A stretch of DNA of 64,000 nt from Allomuricauda sp. (lineage in GTDB: Bacteria > Bacteroidota > Bacteroidia > Flavobacteriales > Flavobacteriaceae). The DNA lies in contig JACESV010000005.1 of NCBI GenBank assembly GCA_013911645.1, positions 57,677 to 121,676 of the forward strand. The letters are read 5' to 3'. The notes beneath the pieces are model-generated. The model was not told where the DNA came from and ran no database searches. It was given only the letters and a program-made list of their open reading frames with translations. Shown here in pieces: positions 1,821 to 39,545 of the stretch. Positions within the stretch are counted from its first letter, which is position 1. Each line of letters opens with the position of its first letter. Position numbers and translations under genes: made by a program.

Positions 1821-2557
1821 AGCAGGCTTACCTCTTTCAAATCAAATTCTTTAAATACCCTATCCTCCAATTCGAGCACCAATTTGCCCGAAGGGGACAC
1901 CCTGCGGATATACCCCATAAACATTTCATTATCTGCATTGGTAAAAGTTGATGGTTTATCCTTTTTGAAAAGTAATTTCTCGTAGGCCGGCAAAAGTTGA
2001 TTGACCGTTTTTGTTTCTATCCCCTGAAGATAAGACCTGATACGTTGCAAAATTTTATGAAGCAGCTCGTCTAGGTCAAAAGTTTGTCCCATTATTGATT
2101 TTAACGATGATGCTTTCTCCAACCCCAAAAAATCCGTTTGGTTCACATTCAGGCCAATTCCGATAATGGAATGGGCTACCTTATCACCTTTTAAGACATT
2201 TTCGATCAAAATACCGCAGATTTTTATGGAACCTGACATAATGTCGTTGGGCCACTTTACTTTAACATTGGGTACAAAAAGTTCGTTCAGGGTATCGCAA
2301 ACGGCCAAGGAAATTGCAATGTTCAAAACAAATTGGTGTTGCACGTTAAACGTATAAAAGTTTTTTAACACGCTAAAAGTGAGGTTTTTACCTCCGTCAG
2401 ATTGCCAAAAAGTTCCCATTTGCCCCCTTCCCTTAAGTTGCTTTTCCGCAACAACCACAGTGTAATCCATAGGATTTTCCGAACGTAACAAATCCTTTAA
2501 ATATGAATTCGTGGAGTCCGTGGCATTAAGTTTGAGTATTTGAAATTGTTTTCCCAA
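1814..2557 (-). CDS. birA: biotin--[acetyl-CoA-carboxylase] ligase (no N-terminal HTH)
   Basis: TDSTN, QLKGRGQMG, KWPNDI, KICGILIE and GIGLNVN motifs. Confidence 0.93.
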   Translation of the reverse strand: MGKQFQILKLNATDSTNSYLKDLLRSENPMDYTVVVAEKQLKGRGQMGTFWQSDGGKNLTFSVLKNFYTFNVQHQFVLNIAISLAVCDTLNELFVPNVKVKWPNDIMSGSIKICGILIENVLKGDKVAHSIIGIGLNVNQTDFLGLEKASSLKSIMGQTFDLDELLHKILQRIRSYLQGIETKTVNQLLPAYEKLLFKKDKPSTFTNADNEMFMGYIRRVSPSGKLVLELEDRVFKEFDLKEVSLLY

Positions 2558-2612
2558 TGTAATAAGCCTTTATGATTTGTTAAAAACTAGGGCTAAGAAA
2601 ACAAAAAAAACA

Positions 2613-2620
2613 TAACTTTG
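2613..2620 (+). promoter_or_regulatory. -7 promoter element (TAACTTTG) for the rsfS-ftsH operon
   Basis: TAnnTTTG match 19 nt upstream of the rsfS ATG. Confidence 0.55.
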
Positions 2621-2639
2621 TAAAAACTAAACTTTTTGA

Positions 2640-3017
2640 ATGCAGAAAACGAAAGCTAGCGCAGATGAATTGATTGCCTTGATCCTAGAAGGAATAGAAG
2701 ACGTTAAAGGAGTTGATATAAATCTACTGGACCTTAGGGAAATCGAAAATACAGTTTGCGACTACTTTATCATCTGTAACGGTACTTCCAACACACATGT
2801 AAACGCAATTGTTTCATCCATCCAAAAAAAGGTTAGCAAGGCCATACACGACAAGCCATGGCATGTTGAAGGCTCTGAAAACGCGGAATGGGTGCTGATG
2901 GACTATGTTAACGTTGTGGTACATGTATTTCAAAAACACATTAGGGAATTTTATGACATTGAGGGACTTTGGGGAGATGCCAAGGTCACTATGGTGGAAA
3001 GCAGTTACAATTCTTAA
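2640..3017 (+). CDS. rsfS: ribosome silencing factor RsfS (Iojap)
   Basis: DYFIICNGTSNTHV and WVLMDYVNVVVHVF...REFYDIEGLW motifs. Confidence 0.95.
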   Translation: MQKTKASADELIALILEGIEDVKGVDINLLDLREIENTVCDYFIICNGTSNTHVNAIVSSIQKKVSKAIHDKPWHVEGSENAEWVLMDYVNVVVHVFQKHIREFYDIEGLWGDAKVTMVESSYNS

Positions 3018-3023
3018 GAAAAA

Positions 3024-4976
3024 ATGGCAAAAGAAAACAACCCGAACAATAACACTCCGAAAAAACCACGTTTTAGCTCGTGGTGGATATATGGTGTGGT
3101 AATCGCCTTGATCATTGGCTTCCAATTTTTTGGTGGAAGCAGTTTATCAAGCACAGAAAAAACCACAACCTCCGAATTACAGGAATTTTTGCGCAATGGT
3201 GATATTTCCAAAATCGTCATCATTACAAATACACGTCAAGCCAAGGTATTCCTTACCGAGGAAGCACTTAACAAAGATGTACATAAAGGCGTGGCCGAAA
3301 AGCCCTTGTTCCCTTCAACAGGATTGGTACCCCAATATGTGTTGGATTATGGAGATCTGCAGATCTTCCAAAACGAAATCACGGAAATCAAAAAAGAGAA
3401 CAATCTCGACACCATTGTTGAGTTTGATACGGAATCCAACGTAATTGGCGAAATATTCTTGACCCTGCTTCCATTTGCCCTTATTATCGGTATTTGGATC
3501 TATCTGATGCGCAGAATGTCCGGAGGCGCAGGTGGAGGCGCAGGCGGACAAATTTTCAATATTGGAAAATCCAAGGCCAAATTGTTTGATGAAAAAACAG
3601 ACACCCGCACCTCTTTTAAAGATGTGGCAGGTCTCGAAGGAGCCAAAGAAGAAGTACAGGAAATTGTAGAATTCCTTAAAAATCCTGACAAATACACTTC
3701 ATTAGGTGGTAAAATACCAAAGGGTGCCTTATTGGTAGGTCCACCCGGAACCGGTAAAACATTATTGGCAAAAGCCGTGGCAGGTGAAGCCAAAGTACCT
3801 TTCTTCTCGCTATCAGGCTCCGATTTTGTTGAAATGTTCGTAGGCGTTGGGGCATCAAGAGTGCGCGATTTGTTCAAACAAGCAAAGGACAAATCCCCAG
3901 CCATTATTTTTATTGATGAGATTGATGCCATTGGACGTGCAAGAGGCAAGAACAACTTTACAGGTTCCAATGATGAACGTGAAAACACCCTGAACCAGTT
4001 ATTGACCGAGATGGATGGTTTTGGCACCAACACCAACGTGATCGTGCTTGCCGCTACCAACCGTGCCGATGTACTGGATAAGGCATTGATGCGTGCAGGA
4101 CGTTTTGACCGTCAAATTTATGTTGACCTGCCCGACCTGAACGAAAGAAAAGAAATTTTTGAAGTACACCTTCGCCCCATTAAGACCGCTGAAACTTTGG
4201 ATTTGGACTTTTTGGCCAAACAAACCCCTGGTTTCTCGGGAGCCGATATTGCCAACGTTTGCAACGAAGCTGCCCTTATCGCAGCCCGTAAAGAGAAAAA
4301 AGCAGTGACCAAACAAGATTTCTTGGATGCTGTGGATAGAATTGTTGGAGGCCTGGAAAAGAAAAACAAAATTATCACCCCAGAGGAAAAGAAAACCATT
4401 GCATACCACGAAGCTGGACACGCAACGGTAAGCTGGATGTTGGAACACGCTGCACCTTTGGTGAAAGTTACCATTGTTCCCCGCGGACAATCCTTGGGAG
4501 CTGCATGGTATTTACCCGAAGAACGTTTAATTGTACGTCCAGAGCAAATGTTGGACGAAATGTGCGCCACTATGGGTGGCAGGGCAGCAGAAAAGGTAAT
4601 GTTCGATAAAATATCCACAGGTGCGTTGAGCGATTTGGAAAAAGTAACCAAACAAGCCCGCGCCATGGTAACCATTTATGGGCTAAATGATCAATTGGGC
4701 AATATTACCTATTATGACTCATCTGGACAGAACGAATATGGATTTACCAAACCATATAGTGAGCAGACTGCTCAAAAAATTGATCAGGAAATTTCCAAAA
4801 TGATCGAAGAGCAATATCAAAGGGCCATCAAATTGTTGGCAGACAACAAGGACAAACTCACCGAACTTGCTGAAAGACTTTTGGACAAAGAAGTTATTTT
4901 TAAAGACGATCTGGAAAAAATATTTGGTAGGAGACCTTTTGAAAAAGAGGAAGAAAAACTTGAACCCGCAGAATAA
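3024..4976 (+). CDS. ftsH: ATP-dependent zinc metalloprotease FtsH
   Basis: Two TM segments, Walker A GPPGTGKT, Walker B IIFIDEID, SRH motif and HEAGH zinc motif. Confidence 0.98.
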   Translation: MAKENNPNNNTPKKPRFSSWWIYGVVIALIIGFQFFGGSSLSSTEKTTTSELQEFLRNGDISKIVIITNTRQAKVFLTEEALNKDVHKGVAEKPLFPSTGLVPQYVLDYGDLQIFQNEITEIKKENNLDTIVEFDTESNVIGEIFLTLLPFALIIGIWIYLMRRMSGGAGGGAGGQIFNIGKSKAKLFDEKTDTRTSFKDVAGLEGAKEEVQEIVEFLKNPDKYTSLGGKIPKGALLVGPPGTGKTLLAKAVAGEAKVPFFSLSGSDFVEMFVGVGASRVRDLFKQAKDKSPAIIFIDEIDAIGRARGKNNFTGSNDERENTLNQLLTEMDGFGTNTNVIVLAATNRADVLDKALMRAGRFDRQIYVDLPDLNERKEIFEVHLRPIKTAETLDLDFLAKQTPGFSGADIANVCNEAALIAARKEKKAVTKQDFLDAVDRIVGGLEKKNKIITPEEKKTIAYHEAGHATVSWMLEHAAPLVKVTIVPRGQSLGAAWYLPEERLIVRPEQMLDEMCATMGGRAAEKVMFDKISTGALSDLEKVTKQARAMVTIYGLNDQLGNITYYDSSGQNEYGFTKPYSEQTAQKIDQEISKMIEEQYQRAIKLLADNKDKLTELAERLLDKEVIFKDDLEKIFGRRPFEKEEEKLEPAE

Positions 4977-16959: not shown

Positions 16960-18153
16960 ATGCCAAGTATTTCGAAGAAAGGGACACAAATGCCCGCATC
17001 GCCCATCCGTAAATTGGTACCCTACGCAGAGGCCGCCAAAAAACGGGGAACCCAGGTAATACACCTTAATATTGGACAGCCCGACATCAAAACACCAAAG
17101 GTGGCTTTGGATGCCGTACGAAACCATACTATTGAGGTACTTGAATACAGCATGACACAGGGTTCCGAAGAATACCGTCAAAAAATTGCCGCTTATTATG
17201 CAAAACGGGACATTTTTGTTGATGCCGAAGATATTATTGTGACCACAGGTGGGTCGGAAGCATTATCGTTTACCATGGGATCCATTATGGATAACGATGA
17301 CGAAATCATTATTCCCGAACCATTTTATGCCAACTATAACGGTTTTGCCACCGCTGCAGGGGTTAAAGTAAAACCTATTGCATCGTCTATAGAAAATAAT
17401 TTTGCCCTCCCTCCCATTTCCAAGTTTGAAGAGCTTATCACCCCAAAAACAAAGGCCATCCTTATTTGCAACCCTGGGAATCCTACTGGATATCTTTATA
17501 GCAAAGAAGAAATCCATCAATTGGCGGAATTAGTAATAAAACACAACCTTTTTTTGGTGGCAGATGAAGTGTACCGCGAATTCACCTACGACGGAAGGGA
17601 ACATTACTCCATTCTTCAGGTTGATGGGCTGGAAGAACACGCCATTGTGGTAGACTCCGTTTCCAAGCGTTACAGTATGTGCGGGGCACGGATTGGTTGT
17701 TTGATATCCAAAAACACCAAAGTAATAGCAACTGCAATGAAATTTGCCCAAGCAAGACTTTCTCCACCAACTTTTGCCCAAATTGCAAGTGAAGCGGCAT
17801 TGGAAACCCCACAAGAATATTTTGATGATGTAATCGAGGAATATGTTTCGAGAAGAAATCTATTGATTACCGAACTCAACAAGTTGGAAGGTGTAAAAGT
17901 GGCCACTCCGCAAGGTGCTTTTTACTGTGTGGCAGAACTCCCTATTGAAGATGCCGACCACTTTGCCCAATGGTTGCTGGAAAGTTTTGAAGTTGATGGA
18001 AAAACCGTAATGGTAGCTCCCGCAGCAGGCTTTTATGCCACGCCAGGTTTGGGAAAAAATCAGATTAGAATTGCCTATGTGCTCGAAAAAGAGCAACTTG
18101 TAAGGGCTGTCCAAATTTTGGGCAAAGCCTTAACAGAGTACAACAACCAGTGA
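16960..18153 (+). CDS. PLP-dependent class I/II aminotransferase (aspartate aminotransferase-like)
   Basis: LNIGQPD, CNPGNPTG, ADEVY and SVSKRYSMCGARIG motifs. Confidence 0.92.
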   Translation: MPSISKKGTQMPASPIRKLVPYAEAAKKRGTQVIHLNIGQPDIKTPKVALDAVRNHTIEVLEYSMTQGSEEYRQKIAAYYAKRDIFVDAEDIIVTTGGSEALSFTMGSIMDNDDEIIIPEPFYANYNGFATAAGVKVKPIASSIENNFALPPISKFEELITPKTKAILICNPGNPTGYLYSKEEIHQLAELVIKHNLFLVADEVYREFTYDGREHYSILQVDGLEEHAIVVDSVSKRYSMCGARIGCLISKNTKVIATAMKFAQARLSPPTFAQIASEAALETPQEYFDDVIEEYVSRRNLLITELNKLEGVKVATPQGAFYCVAELPIEDADHFAQWLLESFEVDGKTVMVAPAAGFYATPGLGKNQIRIAYVLEKEQLVRAVQILGKALTEYNNQ

Positions 18154-19166
18154 ACATACAGGAAAACATATCCTTAAAAAACTACAATACCTTTGGTATT
18201 GATGTAAAAGCACGGTTTTTTGTTGAAATTACCGGACTGGTTCAACTTCAAAAAGCACTTGAACTTAAGGCCTACCCCAAAAAGTTTATAATCAGCGGAG
18301 GAAGCAACATGTTGCTCACCAAGGACATTGATGCACTGGTAATGCATATTAACCTCAAGGGCATTACCATTGTCGAGGAAGACGAAAACAGTGTGGAGGT
18401 GAAGGTAATGGCCGGTGAAAATTGGCATGAATTGGTAATGTGGAGCCTGAAACAGGGTTATGGTGGACTCGAAAACCTTTCGTTGATCCCAGGGAACGTG
18501 GGTACTGCGCCCATCCAAAACATTGGCGCCTATGGTGTGGAACTCAAAGATGTTTTTGTGAGCTGTGCCGCCATGGATGTGAAAACTGGGGAACTGGAAG
18601 GTTTTGACAAGGAAGCATGTAAGTTTGGTTACCGGGATTCCATCTTTAAAAACAAAGCAAAGGATAAATTCATTATTACTTCGGTGGTTTTAAGACTTAC
18701 CAAGAAAGATCATGTGCTGCACACGGGGTATGGCTCCATTGAGAACGAACTGAAGAACAAAGGAATTGTGCATCCGACCATACAAGATATTTCCGATGCC
18801 GTGATTGCCATTCGAAAGAGTAAACTGCCCGACCCCAAGGAAATTGGAAACAGCGGTAGTTTTTTTAAGAATCCTATTATTCCTAAAAAAGCATTTGATA
18901 AATTCATTAAAAAGAACCCCAATGCACCTTTTTATGAGATGGACGAGAATCAATATAAAATTCCAGCCGGTTGGCTCATTGAGCAATGCGGTTTTAAGGG
19001 AAAACGGTTTGGTGATGCAGGCGTGCACGAAAAGCAGGCCCTTGTATTGGTTAACCACGGAAGTGCCACTGGCAAAGAGATTCTTGACCTAAGCAAAAAA
19101 ATTCAGGACGAAGTACAGAAAACCTTCAAAATAAAAATTCAGCCAGAGGTGAACATAATAAAATAA
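18150..19166 (+). CDS. murB: UDP-N-acetylmuramate dehydrogenase
   Basis: GGSNMLL, LIPGNVGTAPIQNIGAYGVE, GNSGSFFKNP, HEKQALVLVN and EVNII motifs. Confidence 0.97.
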   Translation: MNIQENISLKNYNTFGIDVKARFFVEITGLVQLQKALELKAYPKKFIISGGSNMLLTKDIDALVMHINLKGITIVEEDENSVEVKVMAGENWHELVMWSLKQGYGGLENLSLIPGNVGTAPIQNIGAYGVELKDVFVSCAAMDVKTGELEGFDKEACKFGYRDSIFKNKAKDKFIITSVVLRLTKKDHVLHTGYGSIENELKNKGIVHPTIQDISDAVIAIRKSKLPDPKEIGNSGSFFKNPIIPKKAFDKFIKKNPNAPFYEMDENQYKIPAGWLIEQCGFKGKRFGDAGVHEKQALVLVNHGSATGKEILDLSKKIQDEVQKTFKIKIQPEVNIIK

Positions 19167-19197
19167 CCCTCGCATTGAAGTCAATAACGAGGGTTAT
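19157..19197. terminator. intrinsic terminator hairpin (murB end; U-tract on the minus strand)
   Basis: Stem ATAACCCTCG (19163-19172)/CGAGGGTTAT (19188-19197); the minus strand continues UUUAUU. Confidence 0.75.
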
Positions 19198-19303
19198 ACC
19201 AAACCAAACTAACCAAATTTATGTATGTTGTCAGGGTTGTTACACCCCTTATTACTTTTCAAAATGAACAAAGACAAAATGCTTTTTCTGTCTTAGCTTT
19301 GTT
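19157..19303 (-). ncRNA. candidate ~145-nt sRNA with UUGGU repeats
   Basis: No ATG on this strand. Two hairpins, then UUUGGUUAGUUUGGUUUGGU, then a terminator. An ECF-like promoter lies immediately upstream. Confidence 0.45.
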
Positions 19304-19308
19304 TTATA

Positions 19309-19333
19309 TACGAGATAAATCCTATTTTAGATT
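19309..19333 (-). promoter_or_regulatory. putative ECF-sigma promoter AATCT-N16-CGTA
   Basis: Minus strand reads AAAATCT AAAATAGGATTTATCT CGTA, divergent from the ECF sigma gene; a back-to-back AAATCC lies on the plus strand. Confidence 0.45.
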
Positions 19334-19369
19334 TTGGCCCCTTAAAAAATTTTACCAAAAGCATCATTA

Positions 19370-19936
19370 ATGAGCACATTGATCGAGAGACATATTGTTT
19401 CACTCCTTGCGGAAAAAGACGATAAGGCTATTTCCCTACTCTACGAAAATTATGGAGATACACTTTTCGGTGTTGCTTTTAAAGTGGTAAAAGATGAAGA
19501 TTTGGCCCAAGATGTGCTCCAGGAAAGTTTTATCAAAATCTGGAAAAAAGCTGATAGTTACGATGCCTCAAAAGCCAAGCTTTTTACATGGCTATTTCGA
19601 ATTGTGCGAAATACGGCAATAGATAAGTTACGGAGCGTAAATAATAAATCGGACAAGGAAATCCAAATCGACGTTTCAGACGTATATAATGTTGGAGTGA
19701 AGGCTATTAACCCAGAACATCTGGACATCCAAGAAAGCTTGGACAAAATCGAAGATAAGTACAGGGTTGTTCTTGAAGCCCTGTTTTTTGAGGGAATGAC
19801 GCAGCAAGAGGCAAGTGATGAATTGGACATTCCCTTGGGAACCATAAAGTCCCGATTAAAAATCGGGCTAAGGGAACTTGGAAAAATTTACGGTACAACC
19901 ATGGCTTTGCTTCTTTTATTAAATCTATTACCATGA
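19370..19936 (+). CDS. ECF RNA polymerase sigma factor
   Basis: Region 2 (DVLQESFIKIW, TWLFRIVRNTAID) and region 4 (MTQQEASDELDIPLGTIKSR). Confidence 0.93.
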   Translation: MSTLIERHIVSLLAEKDDKAISLLYENYGDTLFGVAFKVVKDEDLAQDVLQESFIKIWKKADSYDASKAKLFTWLFRIVRNTAIDKLRSVNNKSDKEIQIDVSDVYNVGVKAINPEHLDIQESLDKIEDKYRVVLEALFFEGMTQQEASDELDIPLGTIKSRLKIGLRELGKIYGTTMALLLLLNLLP

Positions 19937-20691
19937 AAGAGAAAGTTAAAATATTTTTAGAATCCGATATCTTGGAAAAATACCTTTTGGGAGATACCAC
20001 TAAAGAAGAATCCCAAAAGGCCGAAAGATATATCGCCATGTATCCCGAAGTAAGGGAAACCTACGATATGCTCCAAAAAAATCTGGAGACCTTTGCCAAT
20101 TTGTACGCCAAAAAGACTCCAGAAGGTCTTAAAGAAACCATATTGGCCAGCGCAAAAAAGGAGACAATGGTAAGCAAAAGGTACATGCGCTATGCCGTAG
20201 CGGCCAGTATCGCCATTATGATTTTTGCCGGTTCCTCCCTATTCTTTTGGAACGAAAACAAAACGCTTCAAGAAAAAAATACCATGGTCACCAACCAAAT
20301 CAAGTATTTGGAAAACAACATGAAAGACCAATTGGCAGATATGAGAAACCAATTTATTGTGCTAAATAACCCTGCCACAAAAAAATACCAAGTAAAAGGG
20401 GAACGTGAAGCTAAAGAACTTAAGGCAATCGCTTACATCAACCCAGTCAAAAAACTTTCCTACATCAATGTGAGCAATGTCCCGGAGCTTCCAGAGGACA
20501 AATGCTTCCAAATGTGGGCCGAAGTCAACGGCGAATTGGTAAACTTGGGCGTAATCAAGAATTTTGATGAAAAAGATAAACTTCTTGCGCTTCCTTATGC
20601 CGATAATGCGGTAAGTTACATTACCATTGAACCAAAAGGTGGTAACAACACCCCATCGGTCGACAATATCGTGGCCAACATCAAATATTAA
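19933..20691 (+). CDS. RskA/SigK-type membrane anti-sigma factor
   Basis: ATGA overlap with the sigma gene; LEKYLLG N-terminal domain, one TM, coiled coil, then FQMWA...NLGV...ITIEPKGG RskA-like C-terminus. Confidence 0.88.
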   Translation: MKEKVKIFLESDILEKYLLGDTTKEESQKAERYIAMYPEVRETYDMLQKNLETFANLYAKKTPEGLKETILASAKKETMVSKRYMRYAVAASIAIMIFAGSSLFFWNENKTLQEKNTMVTNQIKYLENNMKDQLADMRNQFIVLNNPATKKYQVKGEREAKELKAIAYINPVKKLSYINVSNVPELPEDKCFQMWAEVNGELVNLGVIKNFDEKDKLLALPYADNAVSYITIEPKGGNNTPSVDNIVANIKY

Positions 20692-20743: not shown

Positions 20744-20751
20744 TACCTTTG
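20744..20751 (+). promoter_or_regulatory. -7 element TACCTTTG
   Basis: TAnnTTTG overlapping the predicted GTG start, which supports ATG 20767 as the true start. Confidence 0.6.
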
Positions 20752-20766
20752 TGCAAAAGTCAAAAC

Positions 20767-20976
20767 ATGAAGTTAGCATTAGTTACCATCGGGTTATTGG
20801 CCCTTGCCTTTGCAGGTATTGCAATTAAAATCTGGGGGAAAAAGAACGGTGAGTTCGCCGGAACATGTGCCAGCCAAAGCCCTTTTTTGAACAAGGACGG
20901 AGAAGCATGCGGATTTTGTGGCAAACTCCCAGAGGAGCAAGATTGTAAAAGAGATACTGTTACCGACACCCAATAA
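20767..20976 (+). CDS. small membrane-anchored 4-Cys protein, NqrM/DUF539-like
   Basis: 69 aa: N-terminal TM helix, KKN, then GTC(34)...C48GFC51...C60. Confidence 0.7.
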   Translation: MKLALVTIGLLALAFAGIAIKIWGKKNGEFAGTCASQSPFLNKDGEACGFCGKLPEEQDCKRDTVTDTQ

Positions 20977-21005: not shown

Positions 21006-21566
21006 TTGGAAAAAACCGACGATTCCATCGAGGAGATTATACAAAAGGCAAAAGAAGGAAATCAAATTGCCTTTAGTACACTCTTGGACACTTTTTGGAA
21101 CGATGTTTACGGTTTTCAGATACTTCGCACCAAAAATGAAAATGACGCAGAGGACATAACCATAAGGACATTTTCCAGGGCCTTTGATAAAATCGACACC
21201 TACGATAAAACATATGAGTTTAAGACGTGGCTCATCACCATTTCCAAAAACCTTCATGTGGATCTCCTCCGAAAACGCAAGCGGAGCCTCATGAACGAAA
21301 TGGATTCCCGGGGGGACGAGGTTAAAAAAGTATTGGACGAAACCCCCACGGTCGAGGACCGTTTGATCACGGAGCAAAACCTCGCCCATCTCTTACAGGA
21401 CATCAAAAAATTAAAACCACATTACCAAAAGGTCATCAACCTACGCTATTTTCAGGAAATGAGCTATGCCGATATTGCCAAAGAACTCAACGAACCCGTG
21501 AACAATGTGAAGGTAAAATTGCTCCGGGCCAAAAAACTTTTGGCAGAGATCATCAAAAAAAAGTGA
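21006..21566 (+). CDS. ECF RNA polymerase sigma factor (no adjacent classical anti-sigma)
   Basis: TTG start; DAEDITIRTFSRAF, FKTWLITISKN and MSYADIAKELNEPVNNVKVKL motifs. Confidence 0.9.
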   Translation: MEKTDDSIEEIIQKAKEGNQIAFSTLLDTFWNDVYGFQILRTKNENDAEDITIRTFSRAFDKIDTYDKTYEFKTWLITISKNLHVDLLRKRKRSLMNEMDSRGDEVKKVLDETPTVEDRLITEQNLAHLLQDIKKLKPHYQKVINLRYFQEMSYADIAKELNEPVNNVKVKLLRAKKLLAEIIKKK

Positions 21567-39459: not shown

Positions 39460-39545
39460 TTTAGTTTGAAAGTGCGATTATGAATTAAGGCTTATCCTTC
39501 GATAATCTAACTGCACCTTCGGGTGAAGACCCTTTTTGGGGGCCA
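39460..39545 (-). ncRNA. putative S4 (rpsD) autoregulatory leader
   Basis: 109-nt rpsK-rpsD gap with nested stems AAGGUGC/GCACUUU, GAUUAU/AUAAUC and AAGG/CCUU, plus a GGGU-CUUC-ACCC hairpin. Confidence 0.6.

Follow-up and report, generated by a model that had tools for sequence, protein, structure and literature searches.

The DNA analysed here (the window) is a stretch of 64,000 nt from contig JACESV010000005.1 of an Allomuricauda sp. and is nearest to Flagellimonas halotolerans; our subject is the 203-bp spacer in it between murB and a gene for an extracytoplasmic function (ECF) sigma factor. The closest solved relatives of this sigma factor are RpoE of R. sphaeroides and SigK of M. tuberculosis. 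Its stop codon is overlapped by the start codon of the following gene, whose product possesses an RskA_C domain (Pfam; 43.9 bits against a cut-off of 29.4), so that an RskA-type anti-sigma factor is encoded directly after the sigma factor. The minus strand of the spacer carries the features of a gene for a small RNA (sRNA), divergent from the sigma gene and convergent with murB (Table 1). A reading of this DNA from its sequence alone, hereafter the sequence-only reading, had listed on that strand a promoter, two hairpins, a tract with three UUGGU units and a 10-bp terminator, and all of these are present at the positions it gave.

Table 1. Coordinates of the features of the murB-sigma-anti-sigma locus (window numbering)
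Feature	Position	Strand	Basis or remark
murB	18150..19166	+	convergent neighbour; last codons overlap the sRNA terminator
ECF sigma factor gene, 188 aa	19370..19936	+	Pfam Sigma70_r2, r4, ECF
Anti-sigma factor gene, 252 aa, RskA_C domain	19933..20691	+	PF10099, E 3.7e-11
Predicted sRNA, about 135-145 nt	19157..19301	-	covariance model R1, fold, orthologous Zobellia minus-strand reads
Ends of the predicted sRNA	5' uncertain, 19301-19289; 3' within U tract, 19162-19155	-	
sRNA promoter, -35 element AATCTAA	19327..19333	-	family consensus (A/C)ATC(T/C)AA; conserved in 148 distinct orthologous sequences
sRNA promoter, -10 element CGTATATA	19305..19312	-	TTT tract before it at -7 to -5
5' hairpin H1	19267..19303	-	fold and model-guided alignment
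Hairpin H2, AGGG/CCCU in the window	19233..19249	-	compensatory changes
U/G-rich tract UUUGGUUAGUUUGGUUUGGUAUA, three UUGGU	19195..19217	-	between H2 and terminator
Invariant 18-mer core of the tract, UUGGUUAGUUUGGUUUGG	19216-19199	-	conservation across loci
Predicted intrinsic terminator	19155..19197	-	stem AUAACCCUCG/CGAGGGUUAU, 19197-19163, 10 bp, G+C-rich; U tract 19162-19155
Candidate sigma-A-type -7 box of the sigma gene, TAGCTTTG = TAnnTTTG	19294..19301	+	putative; read from sequence
Internal ECF-type promoter, ATCCAA-N14-CGTATATA	19661..19688	+	codons 97-106 of the sigma gene, sigma2-sigma4 linker; points at the 3' part of the sigma gene and the anti-sigma gene

A conserved unit upstream of the sigma gene

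Using the sigma protein as query, we fetched 80 loci, one genome per species, in which the sigma factors are 77-99% identical. All 80 contain the exact 18-mer TTGGTTAGTTTGGTTTGG, placed before the sigma gene and in divergent orientation to it. When the whole collection was scanned for this 18-mer, at least 120 stretches matched. Those from Flavobacteriaceae among the matches listed all lie at 135-198 bp from where that same sigma gene starts, provided that the locus extends so far, and the unrelated ones (cyanobacteria, Bacillus, archaea and others) fit the ~17 expected by chance in 596 Gb. About 150 distinct sequences among the matches listed have the unit in divergent orientation to this sigma/RskA-like anti-sigma pair; they belong to about 20 named genera of the family: Flagellimonas/Allomuricauda, Croceitalea, Croceivirga, Zobellia, Maribacter, Eudoraea, Zeaxanthinibacter, Poritiphilus, Euzebyella, Pareuzebyella, Kriegella, Sediminicola, Robiginitalea, Aurantibacter, Spongiimicrobium, Ulvibacterium, Arenibacter, Cellulophaga, Pricia and Aggregatimonas. 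It stays with the sigma gene even in loci where murB is not adjacent. The sequence-only reading had proposed that a non-coding RNA gene with a promoter of the ECF type stands divergent to a pair of sigma and RskA-like anti-sigma genes, and had made its case depend on the retention of promoter, structure and repeats in relatives; the unit is conserved in all three respects, and Pfam confirms the RskA_C domain.

The 10-bp terminator stem is followed by UUUUAUUAU, which reaches 19155, and the terminator overlaps the murB stop codon (19166). A U tract follows the stem on the minus strand only. The predicted fold of this strand has a free energy of -42.1 kcal/mol (z = -3.7), a value equalled by 1 of 200 shuffles. 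The terminator is also supported by a MAFFT/RNAalifold alignment of 54 sequences with a mutual identity below 80%, in which, for instance, the pair 195/224 is CG in 24, UA in 19, GC in five and AU in four. Hairpin H2 is, in the Maribacter/Zobellia-type subgroup, a supported 10-bp stem, AAAUGUNCA.../...UGNACAUUU, and from this subgroup the covariance model R1 was built. R1 finds exactly one copy in every member of a set of 54 diverse loci; in the window, which belongs to the set, it matches 19308-19155 with 60 bits and E 2e-8.

The covariation of orthologous spacers, a check suggested by the sequence-only reading, is in favour of a structured RNA. The proportion of paired cells in the model-guided alignment is 85.7%, versus 39-44% with slid partners, and 31 of 35 pairs display two-sided, compensatory changes; none of 500 shuffles reached the observed values. 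In H2 all ten pairs are changed on both sides and 90.6% of cells are paired. Helices 1 and 2 of H1 have 72-80% of their cells paired and likewise exhibit compensatory changes; the 5' arm of H1 is conserved in sequence and the 3' arm is absent from about one-fifth of the sequences. The support for H1 must be read with caution, because this alignment was itself fitted to the structure.

The only open reading frame (ORF) on the minus strand at this position begins with TTG and specifies 31 amino acids (19184-19089). A small protein was considered and rejected: neither the frame nor a start codon is conserved, and the length of the spacer differs among relatives with no three-nucleotide periodicity, so that nothing points to coding. 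The sequence-only reading erred in stating that the strand has no ATG, since such triplets are found in the terminator loop and in the tail.

No Rfam 15 family, including MicA, RybB, MicL and VrrA, matches the sRNA region at its gathering score. The matches below threshold are at the level of chance (E 0.75-8), the best being to BTnc049 with 18.6 bits against a threshold of 81.9. Neither such an sRNA nor its sequence is described in the literature that we searched, which agrees with the earlier suggestion of an undescribed circuit. Taken on the comparative data, the spacer is therefore predicted to hold a very strongly conserved small non-coding RNA gene that has not previously been described.

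A second exact copy of UUUGGUUAGUUUGGUUUGG was observed in 'Flavobacterium sp.' ASW18X, the genome that also supplied locus L054. This copy (L190:2926-2995, plus strand) lies in a 3' untranslated region (UTR), in the RNA sense: the stop codon of a DUF2383 gene immediately precedes it and an intrinsic terminator immediately follows; no sigma motif is found upstream of it. It may be a 3'-UTR-derived RNA which shares the tract, and as a sequence parallel we count it in favour of an sRNA.

Promoters and transcripts of the locus

Across 148 distinct sequences the promoter of the unit reads (A/C)ATC(T/C)AA, a TTT tract at -7 to -5 and CGTATAT(A), with 16-17 nt between ATCY and CGTA; the copy in the window is ATCT-N16-CGTA. 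The TAT following CGTA is ~100% conserved, though it was not a criterion in selecting the sequences. The strict pattern has two matches in the window, against about 0.4 expected by our arithmetic, and both are situated in the sigma/sRNA locus. The second one lies within the sigma gene itself and shares both the spacing and the TTT tract with the sRNA promoter.

This internal motif is kept in 72 of 73 distinct orthologues and in 31 of 33 orthologues from outside the clade, and in a scan of the loci it is the only other position at which the motif recurs. Synonymous entropy is 0 at codons 97-99, 102 and 104-106 (GAA-(A/G)TC-CAA ... GTT ... GAC-GTA-TAT), the mean of the gene being 1.24, and the promoter has left an imprint on the protein, E-(I/V)-Q ... 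(D/N)-V-Y. We regard it as a clear case of a regulatory element that constrains synonymous sites.

Transcription was followed in stranded raw reads at least 99% identical to the orthologous locus of Zobellia uliginosa (L061, in which the sigma ATG is at 3001). On the plus strand a sharp 5' end is located at L061:3333-3335, with 240-990 fragment ends per position per run, 14-16 nt past the internal CGTATATA. Depth is 2000-3800 from there across the 3' portion of the sigma gene and all of the anti-sigma gene, versus 11-20 over the 5' portion of the former. The transcript is about 1 kb long and has a sharp 3' end at L061:4347-4352, behind a terminator. On the strength of this 5' end and this step in depth, the internal promoter is real and very active, and raises the anti-sigma mRNA about 150-fold above the full-length sigma mRNA. 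The claim of the sequence-only reading that a non-coding RNA is the only local output of the pair is consequently wrong. A read consensus rich in AAACCAAAC at the 3' end of the anti-sigma gene was dropped, being represented by three reads only and not conserved.

Since the motif recurs inside the sigma gene, where it is active by RNA sequencing, and in front of the fasciclin genes of distant relatives (see below), the sRNA promoter can be assigned to the sigma factor; on this comparative evidence ATCY-N16/17-CGTATAT is probably the cognate promoter of the adjacent sigma factor. Promoters with a CGT -10 element have been assigned to ECF sigma factors in F. psychrophilum (PMC9723704). On the plus strand upstream of the sigma gene we found no autoregulatory promoter of the same type.

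The minus-strand coverage in Zobellia is ~1 upstream of L061:2922, 3-6 at 2895-2921 and 5-10 across the body of the sRNA. The reads start at L061:2912-2921, and their offset from the sRNA -10 element (2941-2935) equals that at the internal promoter; minus-strand transcription begins at the predicted start of the sRNA. The RNA data for the species of the window (contigs and metatranscriptome fragments) are unstranded and uninformative; contigs of Cellulophaga and older ones of Zobellia, from both genera, cover the whole region and are likewise without strand information.

These observations bear on a reading in which the spacer encodes no functional RNA, ACCAAACCAAACTAACCAAA on the plus strand being a repeated transcription-factor site that controls the sigma gene and the hairpin merely the murB terminator. 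The direct repeats of the tract, about 90-110 bp upstream of the inferred sigma start, would suit such a site, and a mature RNA was not observed. Yet the unit is preceded, at a conserved distance, by a promoter of a proven (ECF) type that is directed into it, and it is there that the minus-strand reads begin; H2 has been preserved through compensatory changes, the U tract after the terminator exists on the minus strand only, and the L190 copy is placed in a 3' UTR, RNA-sense, before a terminator. We consider a purely DNA-level role highly improbable.

Coverage of the sigma mRNA starts at about L061:2940-2950, ~60 nt before the ATG. Judged by the two coverage onsets in Zobellia, the sigma and sRNA start sites are thus arranged back to back, no more than about 10-20 nt apart. 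In the window, TAGCTTTG is a perfect Bacteroidota -7 box located inside the 5' part of the sRNA gene, where the 5' arm of H1 overlaps it on the opposite strand. The overlap suggests that the promoters of the sigma and sRNA genes would be mutually exclusive.

Such an arrangement could be sufficient in itself, transcription and not its RNA product being what counts: divergent firing might occlude the back-to-back sigma-A promoter, run antisense into murB, or do both, thereby tuning the sigma factor or murB in cis. The proximity of the start sites and the candidate -7 box inside the sRNA gene are in keeping with this. So is the finding that the minus-strand RNA, which covers the sRNA body poorly, passes the terminator and covers murB at a depth of 10-70, versus 1-12 for the sense strand. 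Interference, however, could do without an invariant tract and without a terminator preserved by compensatory changes. The unit is moreover retained where murB is not a neighbour, the group of Olleya, Lacinutrix and Bizionia possesses the murB-sigma arrangement without the unit, and the tract recurs before another terminator in L190. Regulation in cis is in our opinion unlikely to be its function. Also on the minus strand of Zobellia (L061:1700-2780), the signal antisense to murB forms a hump at 2600-2750, and fragment ends are located at 2768-2771, just beyond the sRNA terminator. This signal could stem from read-through or processing of the sRNA transcript, or from a separate start.

Distant relatives and known systems

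The nearest relatives of the sigma factor outside the clade, reached by a 50%-cluster search, share only about 50% identity with it. In Nonlabens, Saprospiraceae and a metagenome-assembled genome (MAG) of Bacteroidia, the same motif occupies the divergent position in front of a gene for a lipoprotein of about 185 amino acids with a fasciclin domain (Pfam E 1e-34). Divergent fasciclin genes with this promoter are present in L201 (1836-2390, minus strand), L203 (75-635, minus strand), L212-L214, L237 and L243. We found no fasciclin gene in the window, nor in any of the clade's loci that were fetched. In these sequences the predicted sRNA gene occupies the position that in more distant relatives belongs to a presumably sigma-dependent fasciclin lipoprotein gene, the counterpart of mycobacterial mpt70/mpt83. 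In a third group, comprising Olleya, Lacinutrix, Bizionia, Mesoflavibacter, Hyunsoonleella and others, murB abuts the sigma gene, and neither a divergent promoter nor an sRNA is present.

Two further loci, L215 (a MAG) and L241 (Zhouia), have a divergent promoter followed by a weaker match to the model, and their tracts, GAUUGGUUGGUUUAGUUGG and UUGUUAGGUUUGGUUUAUAACCCC respectively, are altered but rich in UUGG. By position and sequence they are probably divergent members of the same family, and we count them in support of an sRNA. A different case was noted in a Psychroserpens MAG (L231:2210-2440, minus strand, upstream of the sigma gene), in which a spacer of about 250 bp contains CCGTATATA and a strong terminator. 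It has no UUGG tract and its -35 element is degenerate; this may be a different or a decayed divergent RNA.

In mycobacteria, SigK is held by RskA and controls the sigK locus together with mpt70/mpt83, and MPB70 has a FAS1 domain (PMC4105308, PMC7993774). The present system resembles that regulon in the RskA C-terminal domain of its anti-sigma factor, in the place of SigK among the closest solved relatives of the sigma factor, and in the divergent fasciclin gene with the same promoter of the out-clade Bacteroidota. It departs from it in that the divergent promoter-bearing unit of the window and its clade is predicted to be a non-coding RNA instead of a fasciclin gene. The promoter consensus of mycobacterial SigK, CCATCC-N16-CCGAAT, was not drawn on as evidence.

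In enterobacteria and vibrios the ECF sigma factor sigma-E drives sRNAs (MicA, RybB, MicL, VrrA), and a sigma-E-dependent internal promoter is located upstream of rseA. The logic of an ECF sigma factor that drives an sRNA while an internal promoter serves the anti-sigma gene is accordingly well known. Both systems have an envelope-type ECF sigma factor and a membrane anti-sigma factor, and the RNA predicted here would likewise be short, non-coding and ended by a terminator, and would serve as a repressing arm; in both, a promoter assigned to the sigma factor within its own gene raises anti-sigma expression, and an invariant stretch of the RNA is the presumed seed. The two are unlike in that there is no homology of sequence or structure, the ECF group is a different one (with an RskA-type anti-sigma factor), and the phylum, Bacteroidota, to our knowledge lacks Hfq. 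Furthermore, the presumed seed lies within the RNA, beside the terminator, and is rich in U and G and repetitive, and there is physical linkage between the sRNA and sigma genes.

The sRNAs known in Bacteroidota, such as GibS, MasB and the BTnc families of Bacteroides and Rfp18 of Flavobacterium psychrophilum, are small, structured and terminator-ended, as is predicted for the present RNA, in a phylum without Hfq. None is homologous to the predicted RNA, and none has been reported, in the literature searched, to be driven by an adjacent ECF sigma factor. With sponges of the CsrB/RsmY type the RNA shares its non-coding nature and a short repeated motif. It differs from them in having no GGA, three repeats versus many, a single linear tract in place of hairpin loops, and no Rfam match; for the CsrB-like sponge raised by the sequence-only reading we have no positive evidence.

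The guide RNA system of dCas12f and sigma-E, in which the sigma gene is linked to a dCas12f gene and has no anti-sigma partner (PMC13472631), was also considered. It was rejected, because there is no dCas12f gene at the locus and a canonical anti-sigma gene is present; the neighbours are murB, the RskA-type anti-sigma gene, an ORF of 75 amino acids, a second ECF sigma gene and an ORF which, from its translation, presumably encodes lipoyl synthase. The 75-residue ORF (20749-20976, plus strand), downstream of the anti-sigma gene, is conserved, specifies a Cys-rich membrane protein and has a perfect Bacteroidota -7 box (TACCTTTG) in front of it; the second sigma gene (21006-21566, plus strand) lies 3' of it. 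In the Zobellia reads the region of these two is covered at a depth of 100-330, in part by read-through from the internal-promoter transcript. Elsewhere in the window, an S4-Flavobacteria ribosomal protein leader (39476-39507, minus strand, 52.5 bits) is the sole Rfam match at gathering score.

Possible modes of action

In the scheme that we favour, the membrane anti-sigma factor would release the sigma factor, and RNA polymerase carrying the latter would fire two promoters in the locus. The internal promoter would supply an abundant anti-sigma transcript and so, by negative feedback, shut off the response; the divergent promoter would supply the sRNA. The invariant core of the U/G tract is presumed to be its functional core, either a seed or a site for a protein. 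By analogy with the sRNAs of sigma-E, base-pairing in trans would be the most likely mode, the tract pairing with A/C-rich stretches of mRNAs. The sRNA would in this manner lend a repressing arm to a sigma factor that can only activate, as MicA, RybB and MicL do for sigma-E. From the data above we infer sigma dependence, a discrete mature RNA and pairing in trans, and to the whole, a sigma-dependent sRNA that acts in trans by base-pairing of its tract with mRNAs, we assign a probability of roughly 60%.

Several results weigh against this scheme. In the stranded reads, which the sequence-only reading had named as a check, the minus-strand onset agrees with the prediction, but the depth on the sRNA strand is just 4-10 where the internal-promoter transcript reaches thousands, a mature sRNA was not seen in this standard library, and the reads continue through the terminator into antisense murB. 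A standard fragment library probably loses a structured RNA of about 140 nt, although this is an uncalibrated assumption. The tract, described beforehand as single-stranded, is by thermodynamic prediction not clearly so, its mean unpaired probability being 0.41 versus 0.36 elsewhere. The overlap with the sigma promoter may account for some of the conservation seen in the 5' region of the sRNA gene. A duplex scan of both strands of the window and of the sigma/anti-sigma operon revealed no complementary target other than the antisense of the gene itself, nor was one found in the 3' UTRs of the anti-sigma genes in those of the loci L001-L080 where the gene could be delimited. Finally, the UUGG units of L215 stand in a different order, and this would suit a repeated unit for protein binding no less well than a single contiguous seed.

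This last point leads to the alternative that the RNA is made as described, its UUGG repeats serving to titrate or recruit an RNA-binding protein (e.g. of the RRM, KH or cold-shock type) in a phylum without Hfq. The three UUGGU units, an invariant 18-mer core longer than usual seeds, the rearranged units of L215, the retention of GGUUUGGUUU in L241 and the lack of a local mRNA target in the window and locus would all be in accord with it. Three units are nevertheless few when known sponges have many more, the RNA is not CsrB-like for want of a GGA motif, and the locus is linked to no candidate protein; multi-target base-pairing sRNAs, besides, are also known to have invariant stretches of 20-30 nt. 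We hold a protein-binding role to be rather improbable, though less so than an action in cis.

Going further, one may speculate that the SigK/RskA-type module of this large clade of marine Flavobacteriaceae exchanged an ancestral fasciclin lipoprotein effector for an RNA, that the invariant UUGG tract docks an RNA-binding protein or chaperone new to the phylum, and that the sigma response became mainly post-transcriptional, by way of a new pair of RNA and protein. We would put forward so far-reaching a proposal only as a long shot.

Because of the internal promoter, the anti-sigma mRNA can exceed the sigma mRNA by two orders of magnitude. What makes this case notable is the phylum, the extreme conservation and the apparent replacement of an ancestral fasciclin target. 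The locus would be an example of regulon rewiring, in which the same sigma module and promoter have, depending on the lineage, a fasciclin gene, an sRNA or nothing as their divergent output. The hosts, among them Zobellia, Maribacter, Flagellimonas and Cellulophaga, are abundant marine degraders of polysaccharides. Regulation by sRNAs is poorly understood in Bacteroidota, and the invariant 18-nt core, the defined promoter and the sigma/anti-sigma switch may offer a tractable point of entry.

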